Notes under the pieces: model-generated
Databases searched by the model: none
What the model saw: only the letters and a program-made list of their open reading frames with translations
What the model was told of the DNA's origin: nothing
Part shown: in pieces, positions 45,100 to 61,135 of the stretch
How the letters are laid out: each line of letters begins with the position of its first letter
Position numbering within the stretch: the first letter of the stretch is position 1
From: Candidatus Aenigmatarchaeota archaeon
GTDB lineage: Archaea > Aenigmatarchaeota > Aenigmatarchaeia > CG10238-14 > SCSR01
DNA: 64,000 nt
Assembly (NCBI GenBank): GCA_039090665.1
Contig: JAWCSL010000002.1
Location: 36,809-100,808 of the forward strand
Direction: 5' to 3'
Program-made: the position numbers and the translations under genes

Positions 45100-45123
45100 A
45101 TGAAGGGTGATACTCGGATCTAA
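45100..45123 (+). promoter_or_regulatory. Possible ileS leader uORF MKGDTRI*
   Basis: ATG AAG GGT GAT ACT CGG ATC TAA preceded by TGAGGA, 40 nt upstream of the ileS ATG. Confidence 0.3.
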
Positions 45124-45163: not shown

Positions 45164-48043
45164 ATGACTAGACAAGCTACGCCAAAAGAGCAGGAAGAAA
45201 AGATAATACAATTCTGGAAGAAAAATAAAGTTTACGAAAAAGTTAAAGCCCAAAGGAAAAATGCAAGGAAGTTTTATTTCTTAGATGGTCCACCTTATGC
45301 TACTGGAAGCATTCATGTTGGTACTGCAATGAACAAAGTGATAAAAGATTGCTACTTGAGATTTTTCAGAATGTTTGGTTTTAATGTTTGGGATCAGCCA
45401 GGATATGACACTCATGGTGTGCCGATAGAAAATAAAGTGGAAAAGGAGTTAGGCTTCAAGAGCAAGAAAGATATAGAGAAGTTCGGTGTTGCTAATTTTA
45501 TTCAAAAATGTAGGGAATTTGCCACAAAGTACATAGCAATTATGGGGAGACAGTTTGAAAATCTTGGAGTTTGGATGGATTGGAAAAATCCTTACTTGAC
45601 TCTAACAAACGACTACATAGAAGGAGCTTGGTTTACCTTCAAGAAAGCTTTTGAAAAAGGCTTCTTGTACAAGGGAAATTATCCTGTTCATGTTTGTCCA
45701 AGATGTGAAACTGTTGTAGCTTACAATGAAATAGAATATACAAAACTAAAAGACCCTTCTATCTATGTTAAATTCAAGCTGAAAAACAAGCCAAATGAAT
45801 ATCTTGTTATCTGGACAACCACACCATGGACTTTACCTGCTAACACAGGTGTAATGGCAAATCCAAATGCAGAATATGTTAGAGTTCAAACCAATGGAGA
45901 AATTCTGATTTTGGCTAAACCATTGTTAGAAGAAGTGATGAAAAAAGTTGGGATAAAAGATTACAAAATTTTGGAAACAAAGGTAGGCAAAGACTTGGAG
46001 AATTTGAAGTACGAGCATCCTTTTGCTGATGAGTTTAAATTCCAACAAGTTTTAACAAATGCTCATCGTGTAGTCCTTTCAGACCAATTTGTAAGCTTGG
46101 AAGAAGGTACAGGCTTAGTTCACACGGCTCCAGGCCATGGAGAAGAAGACTATAAAGTTGGTTTGGAAACAGGATTACCACTAGTTTCTCCTGTTAAAAT
46201 TGATGGTACTTTTGATGAAACTTGTGGAAAATATGCCGGCATGTTTGTTAAAGATGCTGATAAGTTGATATTGCAAGAGCTAAGAAAGAAAGGTTTGTTG
46301 CTTCATGAAGAAACTATTGAACACGATTATCCCATTTGCTGGCGCTGTAATACTCCTTTGCTTCAAATTTCAATTCCTCAATGGTTTTTCAGAGTTACTG
46401 CGATCAGAGACAAGTTGATAGAGGAAAACAAAAAAATAAAGTGGAATCCACCTTGGGCGAGTCAAAGATTTCAAAACTGGCTTGAAAACTTAGGAGACTG
46501 GCCAATTTCAAGACAAAGATATTGGGGAATTCCTTTGCCTATTTGGGTTTGTGAAAAATGTGAAAACATTAGAGTTATTGGTTGTAGGGAAGAATTGCCA
46601 AAAATACCTAAAGATTTCCACAGACCTTACATAGATGAAATAACTCTGAAATGTGAGTGTGGAGGTAATATGAAAAGAATCCCAGATGTGCTTGATGTTT
46701 GGTTTGATTCAGGAGTTGCTTCTTGGGCTTCTTTAGGTTTCCCAAGAGAGAAAAAACTTTTCAAGAAACTTTGGCCAGCAGATTTCATTTTAGAGGGTTC
46801 CGATCAGTTTCGTGGCTGGTGGAATTCTTTGATGATAACAAGTATGATGACATTTGAAAAAGCTCCTTTCAAAAGTGTTTTAATGCATGGTTTAGTTTTA
46901 GATGCTCATGGTCAAAAAATGTCAAAGAGCTTGCAAAACATTGTAACAACAGAAGAAGTAATAGAAAAATATGGAAGAGATTTATTAAGATTTTACTATC
47001 TTTCGAATGAGCCGTGGAATGATTATTATTTTAGTTGGCAAAGTATGGAAGAAATTTCTAAATCTTTTGTTGTGGTGAGAAATACTTTCAATTTTGTTAA
47101 AACTTATGTTTCTTCTCCAGGAAACCCAAAAGGCTTAAAGCAAGAAGATAAATGGATTCTTTCTAGACTGAATTCATTAATAGAAAGTTGCACGAAACAC
47201 TTCAAAGATTACAATGCTCACAAAGCTGCAAACGAAATTTTGGATTTCATCTTGAATGATTTTTCAAGATGGTACATTAAGCTTATAAGAGACAGGGTTT
47301 GGCCTTTGTATGAAGGTAAAGACAAACAAACAGCCTTCTACACTTGTATAACTGTGACAGAAACTTTAGCAAAACTTTTAGCTCCAATTTGTCCTTTCCT
47401 AGCAGAACAAGTTTATCAAGAAATTATCAAGCCTCTGAAAAAATCTAAACTTTCGGTTCATATGGAGGATTGGCCAAAAGTTGATAAGAAGATGATAAAT
47501 AAAAACTTGGAAGAAAAGATGAAAGTTGCGAAACAGATTGTGGAAGCTTGTAGTGCTGCAAGACAAAAAGCTAGCTTGAAACTAAGATGGCCAATCGGTT
47601 TTGTTATTGTGATGTCTGAAGATAAGAGAGTTGTGAGTACAGTGAAGAATTTGAAGGAAGTTTTGCTTAGAATGTGTAATAGCAAAATTATAAAGATTTC
47701 AAAAGATGAGCCAAAAGGTGAATTCTCAGTAGCAGATTTCAGTCTAGGCAAAGTTTTTATTCCACTCAAACTTGATGAAGAGCTTTTGAATGAAGCTCTA
47801 TTAAGAGAACTGATTAGAAGGATTCAAGAGATGAGGAAGAAGTTTGGTTTTGTTGTGAAGGAAATGATTGATTTGAGTTTAAGTTCCGATGAAGAGACAA
47901 ATAAGCTCTTAGAGAAAAAGAAGGATTTGATAAGTAAAGAAGTTGGAGCTAAATCTGTTGTAATAGGAACCACGAAAGGAAAATTTTCAGAAACTCTTGA
48001 ATTTGAAAACAAGAAAATAACCATAGCTTTTAGTAAAGCTTAA
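45164..48043 (+). CDS. ileS: Isoleucyl-tRNA synthetase
   Basis: DGPPYATGSIHVGT, GYDTHGVPIE, WTTTPWTLP, GTGLVHTAPGHG, DWPISRQRYWG and KMSKS motifs. Confidence 0.97.
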   Translation: MTRQATPKEQEEKIIQFWKKNKVYEKVKAQRKNARKFYFLDGPPYATGSIHVGTAMNKVIKDCYLRFFRMFGFNVWDQPGYDTHGVPIENKVEKELGFKSKKDIEKFGVANFIQKCREFATKYIAIMGRQFENLGVWMDWKNPYLTLTNDYIEGAWFTFKKAFEKGFLYKGNYPVHVCPRCETVVAYNEIEYTKLKDPSIYVKFKLKNKPNEYLVIWTTTPWTLPANTGVMANPNAEYVRVQTNGEILILAKPLLEEVMKKVGIKDYKILETKVGKDLENLKYEHPFADEFKFQQVLTNAHRVVLSDQFVSLEEGTGLVHTAPGHGEEDYKVGLETGLPLVSPVKIDGTFDETCGKYAGMFVKDADKLILQELRKKGLLLHEETIEHDYPICWRCNTPLLQISIPQWFFRVTAIRDKLIEENKKIKWNPPWASQRFQNWLENLGDWPISRQRYWGIPLPIWVCEKCENIRVIGCREELPKIPKDFHRPYIDEITLKCECGGNMKRIPDVLDVWFDSGVASWASLGFPREKKLFKKLWPADFILEGSDQFRGWWNSLMITSMMTFEKAPFKSVLMHGLVLDAHGQKMSKSLQNIVTTEEVIEKYGRDLLRFYYLSNEPWNDYYFSWQSMEEISKSFVVVRNTFNFVKTYVSSPGNPKGLKQEDKWILSRLNSLIESCTKHFKDYNAHKAANEILDFILNDFSRWYIKLIRDRVWPLYEGKDKQTAFYTCITVTETLAKLLAPICPFLAEQVYQEIIKPLKKSKLSVHMEDWPKVDKKMINKNLEEKMKVAKQIVEACSAARQKASLKLRWPIGFVIVMSEDKRVVSTVKNLKEVLLRMCNSKIIKISKDEPKGEFSVADFSLGKVFIPLKLDEELLNEALLRELIRRIQEMRKKFGFVVKEMIDLSLSSDEETNKLLEKKKDLISKEVGAKSVVIGTTKGKFSETLEFENKKITIAFSKA

Positions 48044-55432: not shown

Positions 55433-58126
55433 TCACTCCAAATAAATTCCAGGCTTACCATATTTTGCTTTTGATGACTTGTTTTGTGGATCATACTTCT
55501 TCTCATCAGAAACCTTGAAACCGAAAATTTTCTTGAACCCAAATTTTTCTTTCAAATACTTTACATTTTCTTTAAAATATTCTAGCTCTTTATCAGTTAC
55601 AAAGTAAAAGTAAGCTTTCTCTTTTTCTCCAGCAAGTTTTCTTACTTGAGAGATGTCTTCCATTAACTTCTGGAAGATTTGCTCAAGCTCGATTACACTC
55701 TTATCAATTTTATTTTCTATAACTTCTGGCCATTTAGCTAAACAAATAAAACCTTCATTTCCTAGCTCATGCCACCACTCTTCAGTCAAATGTGGTAAAA
55801 CAGGAGCCAACAATTTCACCATAGTGCTAACAGCATCTGAAATTATTTGCCTATTACAATTCTTGATTCCTCCACATCTTTCCACATATTCTTTCAAGTC
55901 ATTAACAAACTCGAAAAGAGCAACTTGAACAGCTGTTCTGAACTTTAATTCTTCATAAGCTTCTGTAACCCTTTTCACATTTTGTTGGACTTTACTTTGA
56001 ATTAGCAGATCGATTTTCTTCATTTCTTCCCTTTCAGCTTTCTTCAGATTTTTGATTAATTTTGAAATGAATTTAATTCTTGAAGCATAAATTGGAATAT
56101 TTTCATCTCTCCAATCAGCATCATCCAAATTTTCAGCAGAAGCTATTATATTTATTCTAACCAAATCGCTCCCAATTTTCTTCACCAAATCTTTCAAAGG
56201 TATTATGTTGCCCTTGGACTTACTCATTTTTGTCCCGCTGACATTAACAAAACCGTTCACACCTATAGCCTTTGGCCAATATTTTGAATCATCCCAAATT
56301 GCAACATGATGGAAAAGATAAAATGTCAAGTGGTTTTGCACGAGATCTTTGCCAGAGTTTCTTAAATCGACAGGATAGAAATACTCGAACTCCTTCCTCA
56401 TCTCTTCTATAATCTCTTTATCTAATCCAGAATTCTTGCTCACTTCCTCTATATTCCCTTTTCCTAGGAACACATAATCAAAAACTTCATCTCTCAGACT
56501 TTTAGCTCTCACTTTTTTCTCATTTATAACTTTTGCTATAGTGTAATAAGCCATATATATCACACTATCAGAAAGAGTTTCGATTTTCCAGCTCTTATCC
56601 CAAGGTAAAGGTGTTCCTAGACCGGTTTTTCTAGTACAAGCTTTATCTTTCAACCAATCTACAGTGTTCAAGAACTGACTTCTTATCTCTTCTGGATAAA
56701 ACTTCATAGCTTTTATACATTCCCTCACCTTTTCTTTCCAATTTTCGTCAGAAAACTTCAAGAACCATTGATTTTCTAAAATCTTAACATGGTTTTTTGT
56801 TCCACATCTACAAATTACCAAGCCCGTTGATTCCCACATTATGTCAGCTATACCTTTCTCGATGAAATCTCTTGAAAGTTTTTCCTTACATTCAGAAACC
56901 TTCATTCCAGAATATTCACCGCAATTCTCTTTCAAAACACCAAGATGGAACTCTTTTTTGTAAACTTGGGAAGTAGCTTCTTCTAATTTCTCTTTATCAT
57001 TTTGATCTTTTATTCCTAACTTTTCGCAAAATTCTATTCCTGGATGATCACCAAATCCAGGAGTTTTTATGAGCGAGACTGGTTCAATTTCAAGCACAAC
57101 TTTTGGATCAATTCCATATTTTTTCACTTCTTCAGGATTCTTTTGTAAATCATAAAGACCAATCCAGTCATAAGGAGCATGAGAAGGTACGGACATCACA
57201 ATCCCAGTAGCAGCATCAGGATCTACAAAACTTGCAGGCAAAACTATAACTTTATTTCCATTCACTGGATTTTCCACATATTTACCAACAAGCTCAGATC
57301 CTTTTATGCTACTCAAAACCTCAACTTTTTTCATTTGATCTTTAAGTTTTTCAACAGCTTCTTTACTCAAAAGCCAAGTTTCAGAATCAACTTTAGCCCA
57401 AACATATTCAACATTTGGATTAATCCAAAGATTTGTTACACCATAAGTAGTTTCTGGTCTTAAAGTACCACACGGCAAAATTTCTCCAGACTCTAACTTG
57501 AATTTTATCAAAATGTAATCTATTGGACTTTCTCCTTCACCTTTAAGTCTATCATGATCTCCTGTTGGTGATTGACACTTCGGGCACCAAATAACTGGAT
57601 GAGTACCTTGAACTACATATCCCTTTTCTCTCAAAGTGTTATATTGCCATTCGATGAAGCGATTGAAGCAGGGATCTATTGCTGTGATGAATTTTCTCCT
57701 CCAATCAACAGAAAGTCCAAATAACCTTGAAGTTTTTTCAATTTTTTTTGCCCAGAATTTTGCCGCAAATTCTGGTCCTTTTTCCACAAAATTCTTTAAA
57801 TCTCTGTCACTAGCACCAAATAAACGGAAAGTTTCTATCTGTGTTTGGTCACCAGCTTTAATCCTTTCTATCGAGCCCAATATAGGTTCACCAGTTGCAT
57901 GAAATCCCATAGCAAGAAGGACATTAAATCCTTGCATCCTTTTAAATCTGGAATAAGCATCAGTCCTGCTGTAAGTAAAAGCATGTCCTATATGCAAGTC
58001 GGCATTCACATAAGGTATGATTATCGAAGTGAAGAATTTTTTCTTGCTTGGATCAACATTTGCTTCAAAAATCTTAGCCTTTTCCCATTCACCTTGCCAT
58101 TTCTTCTCTATTTTTTTCAGATTCAT
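55433..58126 (-). CDS. leuS: Leucyl-tRNA synthetase (archaeal type)
   Basis: PYVNADLHIGH, TLRPET, TGIVMSVPSHAPYD, IETLSDSVIY, GKDLVQNHL and KMSKSKGN motifs. Confidence 0.97.
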   Translation of the reverse strand: MNLKKIEKKWQGEWEKAKIFEANVDPSKKKFFTSIIIPYVNADLHIGHAFTYSRTDAYSRFKRMQGFNVLLAMGFHATGEPILGSIERIKAGDQTQIETFRLFGASDRDLKNFVEKGPEFAAKFWAKKIEKTSRLFGLSVDWRRKFITAIDPCFNRFIEWQYNTLREKGYVVQGTHPVIWCPKCQSPTGDHDRLKGEGESPIDYILIKFKLESGEILPCGTLRPETTYGVTNLWINPNVEYVWAKVDSETWLLSKEAVEKLKDQMKKVEVLSSIKGSELVGKYVENPVNGNKVIVLPASFVDPDAATGIVMSVPSHAPYDWIGLYDLQKNPEEVKKYGIDPKVVLEIEPVSLIKTPGFGDHPGIEFCEKLGIKDQNDKEKLEEATSQVYKKEFHLGVLKENCGEYSGMKVSECKEKLSRDFIEKGIADIMWESTGLVICRCGTKNHVKILENQWFLKFSDENWKEKVRECIKAMKFYPEEIRSQFLNTVDWLKDKACTRKTGLGTPLPWDKSWKIETLSDSVIYMAYYTIAKVINEKKVRAKSLRDEVFDYVFLGKGNIEEVSKNSGLDKEIIEEMRKEFEYFYPVDLRNSGKDLVQNHLTFYLFHHVAIWDDSKYWPKAIGVNGFVNVSGTKMSKSKGNIIPLKDLVKKIGSDLVRINIIASAENLDDADWRDENIPIYASRIKFISKLIKNLKKAEREEMKKIDLLIQSKVQQNVKRVTEAYEELKFRTAVQVALFEFVNDLKEYVERCGGIKNCNRQIISDAVSTMVKLLAPVLPHLTEEWWHELGNEGFICLAKWPEVIENKIDKSVIELEQIFQKLMEDISQVRKLAGEKEKAYFYFVTDKELEYFKENVKYLKEKFGFKKIFGFKVSDEKKYDPQNKSSKAKYGKPGIYLE

Positions 58127-58240
58127 AAATAACCTCCTCGATGGATTATAAGATAGAGAAAGAAGGCTTTAAGCTTACAGGAGAAGTCGCTCACCCATCT
58201 CGCTCACTAAATTATTTTTAGGATAAAAAGATTAAAAAGC
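58127..58240 (-). promoter_or_regulatory. leuS leader: TATA-like element, Leu-codon uORF, anti-SD and strong SD
   Basis: Minus strand reads aaagctttttaatc (TATA-like) ... GTGAGCGAG ATG GGT GAG CGA CTT CTC CTG TAA gcttaa AGCCTTCTT tctctatcttataatccatc GAGGAGGTT attt ATG. Confidence 0.65.
58175..58198 (-). CDS. Putative leucine leader peptide MGERLLL*
   Basis: Eight codons ending in CTT CTC CTG TAA, 48 nt upstream of leuS; in-frame alternative GTG start at 58207. Confidence 0.65.
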   Translation of the reverse strand: MGERLLL

Positions 58241-58456
58241 TTTGGGTTTATAACACTTTTTTACAGGATAAATTAGAGTCCAATTTTTCGTAATTAGTTA
58301 AAAACACGAGACTACTAATGAAATTTATGAACAGGCATTTTTGATTATATATTGCATCTGAGCAACATCAGGAATATGAATAAATCGAATTCCATAACCA
58401 AATGGAATAAGAAAAAAAGATTAGCAACACAGAAGCACACATAGTTTTAGACTATT

Positions 58457-59464
58457 TCATGTAGTCTGCAATTTTTCTATTATTCGGTTTGTAAATTCGT
58501 CAGTACTCATTCCAATGAAATTCATATTTCCATCAATTTTTCCATTTTCATAACTTTCTTTTAAGACTTCATCTGTAATTTCCTCTAGCTTTCTTCCTTT
58601 TTCATCCCATCCAAAAGAATACAACATCAGACTTAAAGCTCTAATAGCTCCTGTAGGGTTAATTCTTTCTCTTTGTCCCCTTTCTATTAAATCGTCTGCC
58701 GTGCCATGTACAGGCTCAAAAATATTTGCTTTTTCACCTATGGCAGCACTTCCCAGTGACCAAGGGGGTACAGGTGAAATCGAGGAAGCTAAATCTCCTT
58801 GAGAGTTTTCCAACACGATAACTTTTCCATTTAAAGTTGCAGGATTTTGTGCGATTTTGTGGAAGCAATCATCCACATTTATTTTTTCTTTTGGAACTAA
58901 AGGATAATTTTTTCCAACTTCATCAAATATTTCATTCCAAAAACCATCTCCCATTTTTATGACAGTTGGTTTGGAAGCACAAATAACACCAAGCTTATTT
59001 CTTTCAGCATACTCGAAGGCTTTTGAGAAGAAACTTCCCAATTGTTTTCTAGAAAACACTCTTTCTGTGATAACAATTTCATCATCATTAATTTCTCTTC
59101 TTTCTTTTCCGGAATACAGCCCTTCTCTACCTTGTCTAAAAATAATAAAATTGTAAGATTCTTTTGACCAAGGAAGACTTTTTATCGGTCTTATGATAGC
59201 ATTTACTTGGGCAACATCTCTCATGTAAACTACAGCACTTTTTGACATGCCTTTTGTGTTTATCGGGCCTTTGAATATATTTCTATTTCTATCTACAAGA
59301 TTTTCTATATCTTTGTAAATTGACTCTCCTCTTTCCTTCCAAGTTTTTTGACTTATTAAATATTCTTCAAATTCTAATTCAGGAGCTATATATGAAGCTA
59401 TCTTAACTACAGAATTTACTACATATGGACCAACACCATCCCCCGGCACAACAGCAACTTTCAT
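58457..59464 (-). CDS. Isocitrate/isopropylmalate dehydrogenase family protein (LeuB-like, divergent)
   Basis: PGDGVG, KGP, REGLY, VDD, FEPVHGTA and INPTG motifs; follows leuC/leuD-like genes. Confidence 0.85.
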   Translation of the reverse strand: MKVAVVPGDGVGPYVVNSVVKIASYIAPELEFEEYLISQKTWKERGESIYKDIENLVDRNRNIFKGPINTKGMSKSAVVYMRDVAQVNAIIRPIKSLPWSKESYNFIIFRQGREGLYSGKERREINDDEIVITERVFSRKQLGSFFSKAFEYAERNKLGVICASKPTVIKMGDGFWNEIFDEVGKNYPLVPKEKINVDDCFHKIAQNPATLNGKVIVLENSQGDLASSISPVPPWSLGSAAIGEKANIFEPVHGTADDLIERGQRERINPTGAIRALSLMLYSFGWDEKGRKLEEITDEVLKESYENGKIDGNMNFIGMSTDEFTNRIIEKLQTT

Positions 59465-59937
59465 TTCTGATAACCCCCATGTTTCTTTAAGTAATTAATC
59501 AGGCCCCCACTTTTGCAAATTTCTAAAATAAAATCTGGTACCTTTTTCAGCTCATAAGTTCCTTTTTCTGTAATCAATTTATAATTTTCCAAATCAACTT
59601 TTGCTTCTTCCCCATCTTCTATTTCCACAGGCTTTTCAAGTTGTAAAGGCAAGAGCCCAATGTTTACACAATTTCTATAGAAAATCCATCCGTAAGATTC
59701 TGCAATTAGATAAACACCTTTTGCTTTTAATCCTATTGCTGCATGTTCTCTACTAGACCCACAACCGAAATTTTTTCCTGCTATGATTACATCTCCCGGT
59801 TCTGCATTTTTAAACTCTTCCTTCTTGTATACAAATAGATTTTTGGCTAGTTCTTTAGGATCAGTTGTAATATTAAGCCTACCAGGAATTATGTCATCAG
59901 TGCTTACATCATCACCAAAAACCCAAACCCTACCCAT
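59461..59937 (-). CDS. leuD: 3-isopropylmalate dehydratase/homoaconitase small subunit
   Basis: GDDVSTDDIIPG, NFGCGSSREHA and IFYRNCVNIGL motifs. Confidence 0.88.
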   Translation of the reverse strand: MGRVWVFGDDVSTDDIIPGRLNITTDPKELAKNLFVYKKEEFKNAEPGDVIIAGKNFGCGSSREHAAIGLKAKGVYLIAESYGWIFYRNCVNIGLLPLQLEKPVEIEDGEEAKVDLENYKLITEKGTYELKKVPDFILEICKSGGLINYLKKHGGYQK

Positions 59938-61135
59938 TTAAATACCCCCTTGGATCAGCAATTCTACCTTCGATTGCAGTAGCTGCTGCAGTTGCAGGAG
60001 AGGCTAGGTATATCTCGGCAGTTGGGTCTCCCATTCTTCCCTCATAATTTCTATTACTAGTGGAAACACACACTTGATTTTTTCCCAATACACCTGCTTG
60101 CCTTCCTAGACATGGACCGCAAGAAGGTGGTAGTACCACCATTGCCCCGGCTCTAACAAAAATATCTATCAAACCTTCTTTGTAAGCTTCTTCATAAGTT
60201 TTTAGAGTTGCTGGAATGATTAGAGTTCTTGTGTAAGGATTGACTTTTCTCCCTTTCAATATTTTGGCAACTTCTCTCAAATCGTAAATCGTGCCGTTGG
60301 TGCAACTTCCTATGAAAATTTGATCAACTTCTTTGCCAGCAACTTCTCTAACAGCTTTAATATTATGTGGTTTGTGAGGACATGCTATGAGTGGTTCTAA
60401 TTTCTCAACTTCTATTTCCAATTCTTTAGCATATATCGGGTTTTCTGGAAATAGTCCATATTCTTCTAAATAGAAAATCTCTGTGATTGCACCAACTTCA
60501 GTTGCCATTAAACCAATTGGCATGCGTTCATATGGAGTTAATTTCTTAAGGAAGCTTCCACTAAATTCGATTGCTTTATCTAGTGCACCATCTGCTCCTA
60601 GTTCACCCACATATTTGAGAGAAACATCTTTCGGATAAATACCTTTTCTTGGTTCACCTTCAATTTTTATGTGAATACTTTCCGGAATTTGGATCCAAGT
60701 CTCACCAGTTTTCCAACATGCTGCTATATCAGTTGATCCCATCCCAAGTCCAAGAGCTCCAGCAACACCATAGCAGGGTGTGTGTGAATCACCCCCAACA
60801 ATAACATCCCAAGGTCTTACAAAACCTTCTTCTAACATCAACGCATGACAAATGCCTTGACCTTCATAAAAATTTATTCCATACTTCTTACAAAACTCTT
60901 TAATTATTTTTTGATTGTATGAAGCTTCAGGAAAGGAAGGAGGACAAATATGATCAAAAACTATAATCATTTTTTCTTTTTTAGGTTTTGCCCCTTCTTT
61001 CTCAAATTCTTCGAAAGACTCGATAGCCAAAGGTGTTGTTTGGTCATGTGACATTATCATATCTACTGGCAGAATTGCAATATCACCTTCAACTCTACCC
61101 TTTTTCTTTATTATTTTTTCTATAACTGTACCCAT
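59930..61135 (-). CDS. leuC: 3-isopropylmalate dehydratase/homoaconitase large subunit
   Basis: GICH, GGDSHT, GSCTNG, CGPCLG, STSNRNYEGRMG and YLASP motifs. Confidence 0.88.
   Translation of the reverse strand: MGTVIEKIIKKKGRVEGDIAILPVDMIMSHDQTTPLAIESFEEFEKEGAKPKKEKMIIVFDHICPPSFPEASYNQKIIKEFCKKYGINFYEGQGICHALMLEEGFVRPWDVIVGGDSHTPCYGVAGALGLGMGSTDIAACWKTGETWIQIPESIHIKIEGEPRKGIYPKDVSLKYVGELGADGALDKAIEFSGSFLKKLTPYERMPIGLMATEVGAITEIFYLEEYGLFPENPIYAKELEIEVEKLEPLIACPHKPHNIKAVREVAGKEVDQIFIGSCTNGTIYDLREVAKILKGRKVNPYTRTLIIPATLKTYEEAYKEGLIDIFVRAGAMVVLPPSCGPCLGRQAGVLGKNQVCVSTSNRNYEGRMGDPTAEIYLASPATAAATAIEGRIADPRGYLNG

Follow-up and report, generated by a model that had tools for sequence, protein, structure and literature searches.

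Bacterial leader-peptide attenuators (trpL, hisL and pheL, and pheM before pheST) place a tiny upstream open reading frame (uORF) with cognate codons ahead of the genes they control and induce them when the charged tRNA is low. T-box riboswitches of Gram-positive bacteria are untranslated, structured RNAs that bind uncharged tRNA, and their specifier codon varies with the gene. In bacterial prfB, which encodes release factor 2, a slippery CUU codon lies 3 nucleotides (nt) from a Shine-Dalgarno (SD) sequence, and the sensor is a stop codon that the factor itself decodes. To our knowledge archaea are without T-boxes, and we know little of how they match the expression of synthetases and amino-acid pathways to the availability of individual amino acids. 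Here we analyse the leader of leuS, the leucyl-tRNA synthetase gene, in a 64,000-nt stretch of contig JAWCSL010000002.1 of a Candidatus Aenigmatarchaeota archaeon (hereafter the window), where a first-pass annotation had proposed a leucine-sensing attenuator built on a seven-codon uORF. Judged from its conservation and from the codons of its relatives, this uORF is a real, conserved member of a large family of codon-matched leaders. It very probably senses the cognate aminoacyl-tRNA, and the cassette to which it belongs is probably a hungry-codon, programmed +1 frameshift sensor, akin in design to prfB and to Ty1 of yeast.

The likeness to bacterial attenuators lies in the tiny uORF with cognate codons and in the proposed induction when charged tRNA is low; here, however, there is one sensor codon at a fixed position where bacterial leaders have runs of codons, no terminator or antiterminator hairpins were found in the leuS leader, the uORF has a frame relation to the downstream gene, and the host is archaeal. 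With T-boxes the family shares its gene set (synthetases and amino-acid biosynthesis) and a single codon that changes with the gene, but this codon sits in a translated-looking uORF, and there is no T-box structure or Rfam match. In both prfB and our leaders a short 0-frame open reading frame (ORF) ends right past the shift site, the P-site codon (in ours, the proposed one) is a slippery CUU with an SD-like sequence a few bases upstream, a slowly decoded A site would act as the sensor, and it is the +1 frame that holds the product or path of use. Unlike prfB, the leaders described here would sense with a sense codon read by aminoacyl-tRNA, are modular across at least 11 amino acids in an archaeal host, and space the SD-like sequence 4 nt from the 0-frame codon (5 nt from the +1 codon) rather than 3 nt; and the +1 frame of leuS merely leads to the gene start.

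The review PMC5009743 treats frameshifting as both sensor and effector, discusses hungry codons and an apparently incidental pheL frameshift, and describes the Ty1 site CUU_AGG_C, where a tRNA-Leu in the P site moves from CUU onto UUN as the codon in the A site awaits a scarce tRNA. Ty1 thus resembles our cassette in its CUU slip at a hungry A-site codon, but relies on a constitutively rare tRNA and yields a set product ratio, whereas the waiting codon here is cognate to the regulated gene, which suggests feedback on the charging level. The same review describes a ketolide-induced frameshift in the ermC leader, after which ribosomes translate the spacer, unfold the mRNA and downstream initiation follows. 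We propose the same unfolding and initiation effect for leuS, although the ermC trigger is an antibiotic acting on a bacterial ribosome and ours would be the supply of a specific aminoacyl-tRNA. A passage of a 2021 review (PMC8211752) gives only one case of programmed frameshifting in Archaea, a -1 shift in Saccharolobus. Our full-text literature searches turned up no account of cognate-codon leaders or of frameshift sensors ahead of archaeal synthetase genes, and none of leader-peptide control of archaeal synthetase or amino-acid-pathway genes.

The leuS leader of the window comprises the following parts, in the order of transcription.

58231..58243, minus strand: putative promoter element resembling a B recognition element and TATA box (BRE/TATA-like), AAAGCTTTTTAAT, kept in the six leuS leaders of the genus
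58203..58208, minus strand: AGTGAG, 5' SD-like motif and predicted transcript 5' end, kept in the leuS leaders
58207-58205, minus strand: GTG in frame with the uORF, read directly from the sequence
58198-58175, minus strand: leader uORF ATG GGT GAG CGA CTT CTC CTG TAA (MGERLLL*), read directly from the sequence
58191..58196, minus strand: GGGTGA within uORF codons 1-3, encoding a conserved Gly-Glu and complementary to the 16S rRNA 3' end
58184..58186, minus strand: codon 5, CTT, proposed slippery P-site codon that could re-pair as UUC in the +1 frame
58181..58183, minus strand: codon 6, CTC, proposed Leu sensor ('hungry') codon, CTC or CTA in 7/7 leuS leaders
58123..58182, minus strand: +1-frame path of 19 sense codons (58182-58126; SCKLKAFFLYLIIHRGGYL) followed by TGA (58125-58123)
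58156..58162, minus strand: CTTTCTC pyrimidine tract, predicted anti-SD to the leuS SD (RNAalifold and pair counts, six leuS leaders)
58132..58139, minus strand: leuS SD-like sequence GAGGAGGT, complementary to the 16S rRNA 3' end
55433..58126, minus strand: leuS, leucyl-tRNA synthetase (LeuRS), 897 amino acids (aa), by Pfam and NCBIfam TIGR00395 (1000 bits, cutoff 648.5)

Direct reading confirmed the uORF, whose stop lies 48 nt before the leuS ATG (58126-58124), as well as the SD-like sequence and the TATA-like run at 58239-58231 of the first-pass annotation. The BRE/TATA-like element lies about 25 nt 5' of AGTGAG, and a TATA-like box stands at an equal distance ahead of nearly all homologous leaders; it is on archaeal promoter geometry that we read AAAGCTTTTTAAT as a promoter. 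The in-frame GTG at 58207, earlier offered as a possible start, is better read as part of the 5' SD-like motif at the predicted transcript start. The GUGA of this motif precedes the uORF AUG by 5 nt, and the GUGA of GGGTGA in codons 1-3 precedes the +1-register codon UUC by the same 5 nt, a spacing that we infer favours the shifted register. The 16S rRNA of this genome ends in GGATCACCTCCT, to whose GGAUCACCUCCU the GGGUGA of codons 1-3 is complementary. The genome (620,606 bases in 15 contigs, about 91% complete) encodes a tRNA-Leu(GAG) that could read CUU and re-pair on UUC, and it uses all three stop codons. The TGA that ends the +1 path overlaps the leuS ATG as ATGA. The sequence itself agrees without differences with contigs of four hot-springs DNA runs: X9 and X2 each span 57950-58450 in one piece and are near-identical to the window, possibly its own source, X8 spans the same interval as two overlapping pieces, and X10 covers 57950-58165 only.

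The leader is conserved within the genus. A LeuRS protein search of 40 related genomes allowed upstream regions to be compared at 16 loci; among named records the closest LeuRS proteins belong to Candidatus Aenigmatarchaeota metagenome-assembled genomes, at 79-91% identity. With G000 the genome under study and G001-G007 relatives of the same genus, the leader is found 5' of leuS in six of these eight genomes (G000, G001, G002, G004, G006 and G007) and is absent upstream of leuS at the other 10 of the 16 loci (G003, G005 and eight loci from other genera). The six genomes have in common a block of about 100 nt, from AAAGCTTTTTAAT through AGTGAG-N4-ATGGGTGAGCGA(C/G)TTCTC to the leuS SD, and the block is kept though its upstream neighbour varies, being an acs-like gene in three genomes and other genes elsewhere. 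Because it is kept upstream of leuS whatever the neighbouring gene, the uORF block is, by comparison of these genomes, more than a chance occurrence. The alignment thus bears out the earlier expectation that relatives would share a Leu-codon uORF, in the variants MGERLLL, MGERLLV and MGERVLKL, with MGERLLSN on a metagenome contig (L044). It bears out the three-Leu-codon sensor of the first-pass annotation in part: a Leu codon with the hallmarks of a sensor is present, but it is the single codon 6 (CTC) and not a run of three. Among the three tandem codons CTT CTC is all that is conserved; at the third position relatives have a Leu codon (CTG, TTA or CTA), GTA (Val), AAA (Lys) or TCC (Ser). In G002 and G004 the +1 frame closes with an ATGA overlap, in G006 and G007 its TAG stands 2 nt short of the ATG, and in L044 it runs in frame with LeuRS.

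Folding supports one of the pairings proposed earlier. The minimum-free-energy (MFE) fold of the window's leader pairs AGCCUUCUU with GAGGAGGUU (58168-58160 with the leuS SD), and RNAalifold places a consensus helix between CUUUCUC (58162-58156) and GAGGAGG (58139-58133) in the six leuS leaders, so that base-pairing between a pyrimidine tract and the leuS SD is predicted both in the single fold and across relatives. Four of the seven pairs of this helix show changes on both sides, the covariation that had been suggested as a check; 5/500 shuffles reach the observed value, and slid controls fall below it. The comparative support for an anti-SD:SD helix before leuS is modest. The only other conserved helix joins 5' UGAGC with GCUUA; neither the pairing of UCUCCU with the leuS SD nor that of GAGAUGGG with UCUAUCUU or CCAUC, both put forward in the first-pass annotation, appears in the consensus structure. 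Scans and folds of the leuS leader gave no mutually exclusive terminator and antiterminator hairpins. No terminator-like sites were found by a scan whose consensus is bacterial-type and does not model archaeal signals, and no sigma-70 promoters by a scan with the same limit. An Rfam search of 57900-58700 with E up to 10 returned three chance-level matches to snoRNA and lncRNA families, the best at E = 2.

The leuS leader belongs to a larger family. In a pattern search within the family, the first cores away from leuS stood before a HisRS gene (codon 6 CAC) and a ProRS gene (codon 6 CCA). The exact pattern GTGAR-N4-ATGGGTGAR matched 36 times in 117 genomes of the order (reversed control, 2) and 74 times in 370 genomes of the class (control, 4), the phylum search covering the same 370; a search allowing two mismatches gave 39 matches against 12 for controls. 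We classed as leaders those matches with a short 0-frame ORF, usually with a TATA-like box about 25 nt ahead of the motif. Fifty-eight of the 74 exact matches are leaders; the other 16 are ordinary genes (for example, for an Sm-like protein and a ribosomal protein) or are without leader features. Together with seven from the two-mismatch search and one metagenome locus (L044) this makes 66 leaders, 65 of them in 54 of the 370 genomes and 16 GTDB families and one on a metagenome contig. Among these leaders and the more diverged cassettes described below, codons vary (GGT/GGC, GAG/GAA/GAT and CGA/CGC/CGT/CGG), and the modular cassette can be written as a putative promoter, a 10-nt 5' untranslated region with an SD-like GUGA, AUG GGU GAR NNN, a proposed slippery codon (NUU, NAA, CCC or CGG) and one cognate codon.

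Candidates set aside as ordinary genes or for want of leader features were L073, L074, L077 and L082 from the two-mismatch search, and L089, L090, L097, L099, L104, L110, L114, G000:C2, L151, L157, L158, L160, L162, L169, L179 and L182. Also left out from the two-mismatch matches were G007:C2, which repeats the L082 sequence, G003:C132 (L120), with a 2-codon frame, and G066:C72 (L121), which opens a 216-aa gene. An MGERVW uORF at G000:C9:4757 was rejected as lying inside a 330-aa gene. In a metagenome pattern scan, four of 16 stretches were real (L044; L047, the window's own sequence; and L051 and L053, like G001), and the other 12 were unrelated, GC-rich chance matches.

What identifies the family as codon-matched is codon 6. 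With downstream genes identified by NCBIfam and Pfam, codon 6 is cognate to the amino acid of the downstream gene in 58/58 leaders that have an amino-acid-specific gene on the same strand. Fifty-three of these assignments rest on family matches that exceed the curated cutoff or on a protein 74-91% identical to the window's LeuRS, and five (L044, L113, L118, L168 and L173) on partial or below-cutoff matches; the remaining 8 of the 66 leaders, L156 among them, lie at contig ends or before unknown proteins and are outside the count. Eleven amino acids are covered, through synthetases and through trp, his, cys and phe enzymes.

Leu, 7 leaders: LeuRS
Pro, 8 leaders: ProRS, one operon also with ornithine cyclodeaminase
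Thr, 6 leaders: ThrRS
Cys, 12 leaders: CysRS, cysteine synthase, cystathionine gamma-synthase
His, 15 leaders: HisRS, HisG, HisI
Lys, 2 leaders: class I LysRS
Asn, 3 leaders: AsnRS, AsnA-like
Trp, 1 leader: trpE-G-D
Val, 1 leader: ValRS
Ile, 1 leader: IleRS
Phe, 2 leaders: prephenate dehydratase

That homologous leaders carry the cognate codon at the same position throughout supports the idea of a conserved, Leu-sensing leader before leuS. Some uORFs hold additional cognate codons (MGERFCCSCSR, MGERQKK and MGERLLL), and in several operons a cognate tRNA gene, for tRNA-Pro(UGG), tRNA-Cys(GCA) or tRNA-Asn(GUU), lies between leader and synthetase.

The same rule holds among more diverged cassettes in the genome under study, where the exact motif form occurs once. 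We checked upstream of eight other synthetase genes of this genome and relaxed the pattern so that one additional codon may precede GGY GAN. The relaxed pattern gave 18 matches, 11 of them with a 0-frame ORF of at most 25 codons; six of these 11 have a TATA-like box, and all six precede the cognate synthetase, each confirmed above cutoff. Beyond leuS these are five diverged cassettes (ThrRS, ValRS, IleRS, AsnRS and CysRS), 5/5 cognate; the five matches that lack a TATA-like box were not counted as leaders, and no cassette was found within 220 nt of proS, hisS or lysS. The six uORFs, with codon 5 and codon 6, are listed below, followed by the locations of the ileS unit, which lies in the window, and of the remaining four.

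leuS: MGERLLL, CTT_CTC
ileS: MKGDTRI, CGG_ATC
valS: MKGDRRVQL, CGG_GTA
asnS: MRGDCQNNSC, CAA_AAC
thrS: MIGECQTLF, CAA_ACA
cysS: MGDSFCIN, TTT_TGC
45100..45123, plus strand: ileS leader ATG AAG GGT GAT ACT CGG ATC TAA (MKGDTRI*), sensor ATC at 45118-45120
45164..48043, plus strand: ileS, isoleucyl-tRNA synthetase (IleRS), 959 aa, NCBIfam TIGR00392 (962 bits, cutoff 621)
G000:C11:13117 (plus), C9:56408 (minus), C9:9931 (minus) and C13:23198 (plus): thrS, valS, asnS and cysS cassettes, loci L196-L199

The +1 frame of the ileS leader, from 45119, enters the IleRS ATG (45164) in frame, and the 15 nt preceding that ATG contain no SD-like sequence. The asnS unit has a tRNA-Asn(GUU), called by ARAGORN, between leader and synthetase, and the cysS unit a tRNA-Cys-like sequence in the same place that was not called.

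Why should the family involve a change of frame? The search patterns fixed only the 5' motif and codons 1-3, so the results that follow are unbiased by the search. In 65 of 66 leaders the second and third bases of codon 5 are identical (CTT 28, GTT 13, TTT 6, GAA 6, CAA 4, CGG 6, CCC 2), NTT being followed by sensor codons with C or T as first base and NAA by those with A. From this doublet and the first base of the sensor codon, the P-site codon after a one-base slip would therefore be UUY, AAA or CCN. CTT at codon 5 is common to Leu, Pro, His, Cys and Trp leaders, and GGGTGA, 4 nt before CTT, is complementary to the 16S 3' end. The frames are equally uneven: the median open length over the 66 leaders is 11 codons in the 0 frame, 61 in the +1 frame and 9 in the +2 frame, and +1 exceeds +2 in 55/66 leaders and in 39/45 genus-by-amino-acid representatives (binomial p = 5e-7). 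The leuS uORF stops two codons after the sensor codon.

The +1 frame also leads somewhere. It ends at the next start, in an ATGA-type overlap, in leuS of G000, G002 and G004, in a thrS leader (L098) and in many ORFs for winged helix-turn-helix (wHTH) and AbrB proteins; it is the gene itself for LeuRS in L044, HisRS in L155 and L173 and IleRS in G000, and it encodes TrpE, HisG, cysteine synthase or cystathionine gamma-synthase in other leaders. Among 11 frame exceptions, six are double: within the +1 frame of the first cassette lies another, its cognate codon unchanged, and the +1 frame of this second cassette is the gene frame; these double cassettes are of Thr in genus g20 (three leaders, from three genomes), His (L103 and L177) and Phe (L168). 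In L100 and L184 the +1 frame of an alternative GUG start is closed by TAG before the shift site, yet the +1 peptides align with homologues from the first residue past the shift, and no canonical start codon occurs before nt 91 and nt 166, positions inside or beyond the conserved core. We rejected reassignment of TAG: it ends 44/291 long open frames, and the tRNA(CTA) call is a misfold. This call, an ARAGORN 'tRNA-Pyl(cta)' at G000:C12:24957-25045, has a mismatched anticodon stem and a length of 89 nt, and is probably an intron-containing tRNA misread.

We therefore propose a working model for leuS in which charging of tRNA-Leu sets the fate of the ribosome. With charged tRNA-Leu plentiful, a ribosome would decode CUC and CUG and halt at UAA, 48 nt before leuS. 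With Leu-tRNA scarce, it would pause at CUC, its A site unfilled and CUU in the P site, and the peptidyl-tRNA-Leu(GAG) could re-pair one base ahead on UUC, a slip perhaps aided by the upstream GGGUGA through anti-SD pairing and/or by the nascent Gly-Glu. The +1 ribosome would cross the anti-SD:SD helix and reach the UGA overlapping the leuS AUG (AUGA), and opening of the helix together with delivery of the ribosome would allow re-initiation at leuS and hence more LeuRS. In relatives the +1 frame directly encodes the protein presumed to be regulated, be it HisRS, IleRS, LeuRS, TrpE, HisG, cysteine synthase, or a small wHTH or AbrB protein.

A number of observations weigh against this model, or against parts of it. 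For the window's leuS alone, the evidence for a frameshift is weak: the +1 frame stays open to the leuS start in 44% of shuffled spacers (P = 0.44; 0.31-0.55 for the other leuS leaders, and 0.23, 0.08, 0.15 and 0.013 in other lineages), leuS has a strong SD and an ATG of its own, and the +1 path itself includes four Leu codons. In stability the leader folds do not exceed shuffled sequence (z from +0.20 to -1.72). Across the family, (A/G)GTGAR-N4-ATG is present in 66/66 leaders and GGGTGA ahead of CTT recurs, but both were demanded by the search patterns, so conservation of codons 1-3 and of the 5' motif is not independent evidence. The pairing of GGGTGA with 16S is weakened by the GGC GAT (Gly-Asp) variants of the valS, cysS and asnS leaders, which keep the Gly-acidic pair; the conserved Gly-acidic element may for this reason work, alternatively or additionally, through the nascent peptide. 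CGG_A and CGG_G junctions, in 6/66 leaders and in ileS and valS of G000, would re-pair poorly in the +1 frame. L185 (G279:C115; a Phe leader, MGEHLFLV.., CTC_TTT, ahead of prephenate dehydratase) can be explained by neither one +1 shift nor two: the conserved N-terminus of the enzyme, which has no start codon, is found in the +1 frame past a TAG, and this could be an assembly error. One leader, L156 (G146:C4), is the only apparent mismatch to the codon rule, with a Cys codon, a +1 frame that is an unknown 418-aa ORF, for which a Protein Atlas look-up gave a weak GNAT-like lead, and then HisRS. Finally, leaders before tRNA genes would need translation across the tRNA, which hints at an effect at the level of transcription instead, and T-rich tracts after uORF stops, together with the leader-linked tRNA genes, leave room for such an effect.

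These last points bear most directly on an account in which ribosomes stall and do not shift: a pause at the cognate codon would refold the RNA or block termination, thereby exposing the leuS SD or letting transcription continue. We consider it unlikely, although much is in its favour, since the cognate codon rule (58/58), the additional cognate codons of some uORFs, the leuS anti-SD:SD helix with its four compensatory pairs, and the T-rich tracts just past many uORF stops and tRNA genes inside regulated units, which fit transcription control, would all be expected of it. It leaves unexplained, however, the slippery codon 5 in 65/66 leaders, the surplus of open +1 frames, the exact +1 placement of the second cassettes and the conserved proteins that lack a start codon of their own, and these four features therefore point to a +1 frameshift switch. 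A ribosome held at codon 6 would moreover mask the starts of overlapping ORFs, lowering expression in starvation, and neither folds more stable than shuffles nor alternative hairpins were found. The first-pass annotation had favoured just such refolding to expose the leuS SD; of that proposal the anti-SD:SD helix survives with modest backing, while the absence of a terminator and antiterminator pair and of any fold beyond shuffles, and the four features just named, tell against the rest.

Overlapping starts offer another way to reach the +1 frame. If the GUG inside AUGGGUGA began the +1 ORF, and the AUG uORF were a competing or coupling frame, no frameshift would be needed; a GUG at nt 5-7 is indeed present and could open the +1 frame in 62/66 leaders, and many +1 ORFs (wHTH, AbrB, HisG and TrpE) begin at it. 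Such an arrangement leaves unaccounted for both the cognate codon of the 0 frame and its NYY predecessor, and protein function offers no reason why unrelated proteins should nearly always have UUY or AAA as the fourth codon of the GUG frame. A TAG interrupts the GUG frame in L100, L113 and L184, and L118 has no GUG, while L100 and L184 still encode conserved proteins from the shift site on, all of which makes this explanation very improbable. More improbable still is an untranslated element, either a T-box-like RNA with a specifier codon or a DNA operator (GTGAR-N8-GTGAR at the transcription start) for a shared wHTH or AbrB repressor. The fixed position about 25 nt past the TATA box, the direct-repeat form of the motif, the link of wHTH (HTH_20/ArsR) and AbrB genes to many leaders and the parallel between specifier and sensor codon speak for it, but the AUG and early stop are always present, the variation is codon-like, the region has no meaningful Rfam score (best E-value 2) and the exact motif is found only once in G000; a DNA operator, furthermore, cannot account for a codon that changes with the downstream gene.

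Many leaders run, in the +1 frame, into small putative regulators. wHTH (HTH_20/ArsR-like) proteins occupy that frame in L106, L107, L109, L112, L119, L154, L161, L170, L174 and L178, and AbrB-domain proteins in L103, L115, L116, L152, L153, L165, L166, L171, L177, L180, L183 and L184; they follow Cys, Lys, His and Asn leaders, and in L103 the AbrB domain is fused to HisRS. From their position, these proteins could be regulators made only after the shift. L166 (G281:C121) has two cassettes in one his operon, of which the first leads into an AbrB gene and the second overlaps the N-terminal codons of HisG, whose conserved Phe-Ile doubles as the proposed slip site and His codon. Between Thr leader and ThrRS, L094-L096, L100 and L172 encode a conserved 86-110-aa protein (N-terminus ..ISSYSD..; weak DUF1699 match) whose stop overlaps the ThrRS start. 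In the Pro-leader operons L091-L093, from one genus, a gene for a CsaA/Trbp111-type tRNA-binding protein lies between tRNA-Pro and ProRS, and the ornithine cyclodeaminase of the L093 operon is a proline-forming enzyme.

Around the leuS leader itself, the genes 5' of it on the same strand (58457-61135) encode aconitase large and small subunits and a member of the isopropylmalate/isocitrate dehydrogenase family; they are leuC/D/B-like or homoaconitase-type, in a DPANN genome of 0.62 Mb. Weak matches to C/D-box snoRNA-like Rfam families at 58338-58418 (plus strand) and 58422-58515 (minus strand), with E = 2 and 9 and far below gathering scores, are probably chance; the former sits in the 330-nt spacer 5' of the leader and the latter straddles the 3' end of the Iso_dh gene.

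On balance, we lean towards the view that Aenigmatarchaeota use a modular, portable sensor of aminoacyl-tRNA that works through a +1 frameshift at a hungry cognate codon and controls synthetases, their tRNAs, biosynthesis operons and small wHTH/AbrB regulators, with tandem two-shift cassettes sharpening the response, as a counterpart of T-box and leader-peptide systems. If this is true, Archaea would have their first known regulated +1 frameshift, and hungry-codon slippage its first natural use as a specific sensor, in a compact part of about 30 nt whose specificity is switched by swapping one codon. Many 'start-less' or 'frameshifted' DPANN genes would then be intact and should not be annotated as pseudogenes, and the archaea would have a previously undescribed way to sense amino-acid supply.

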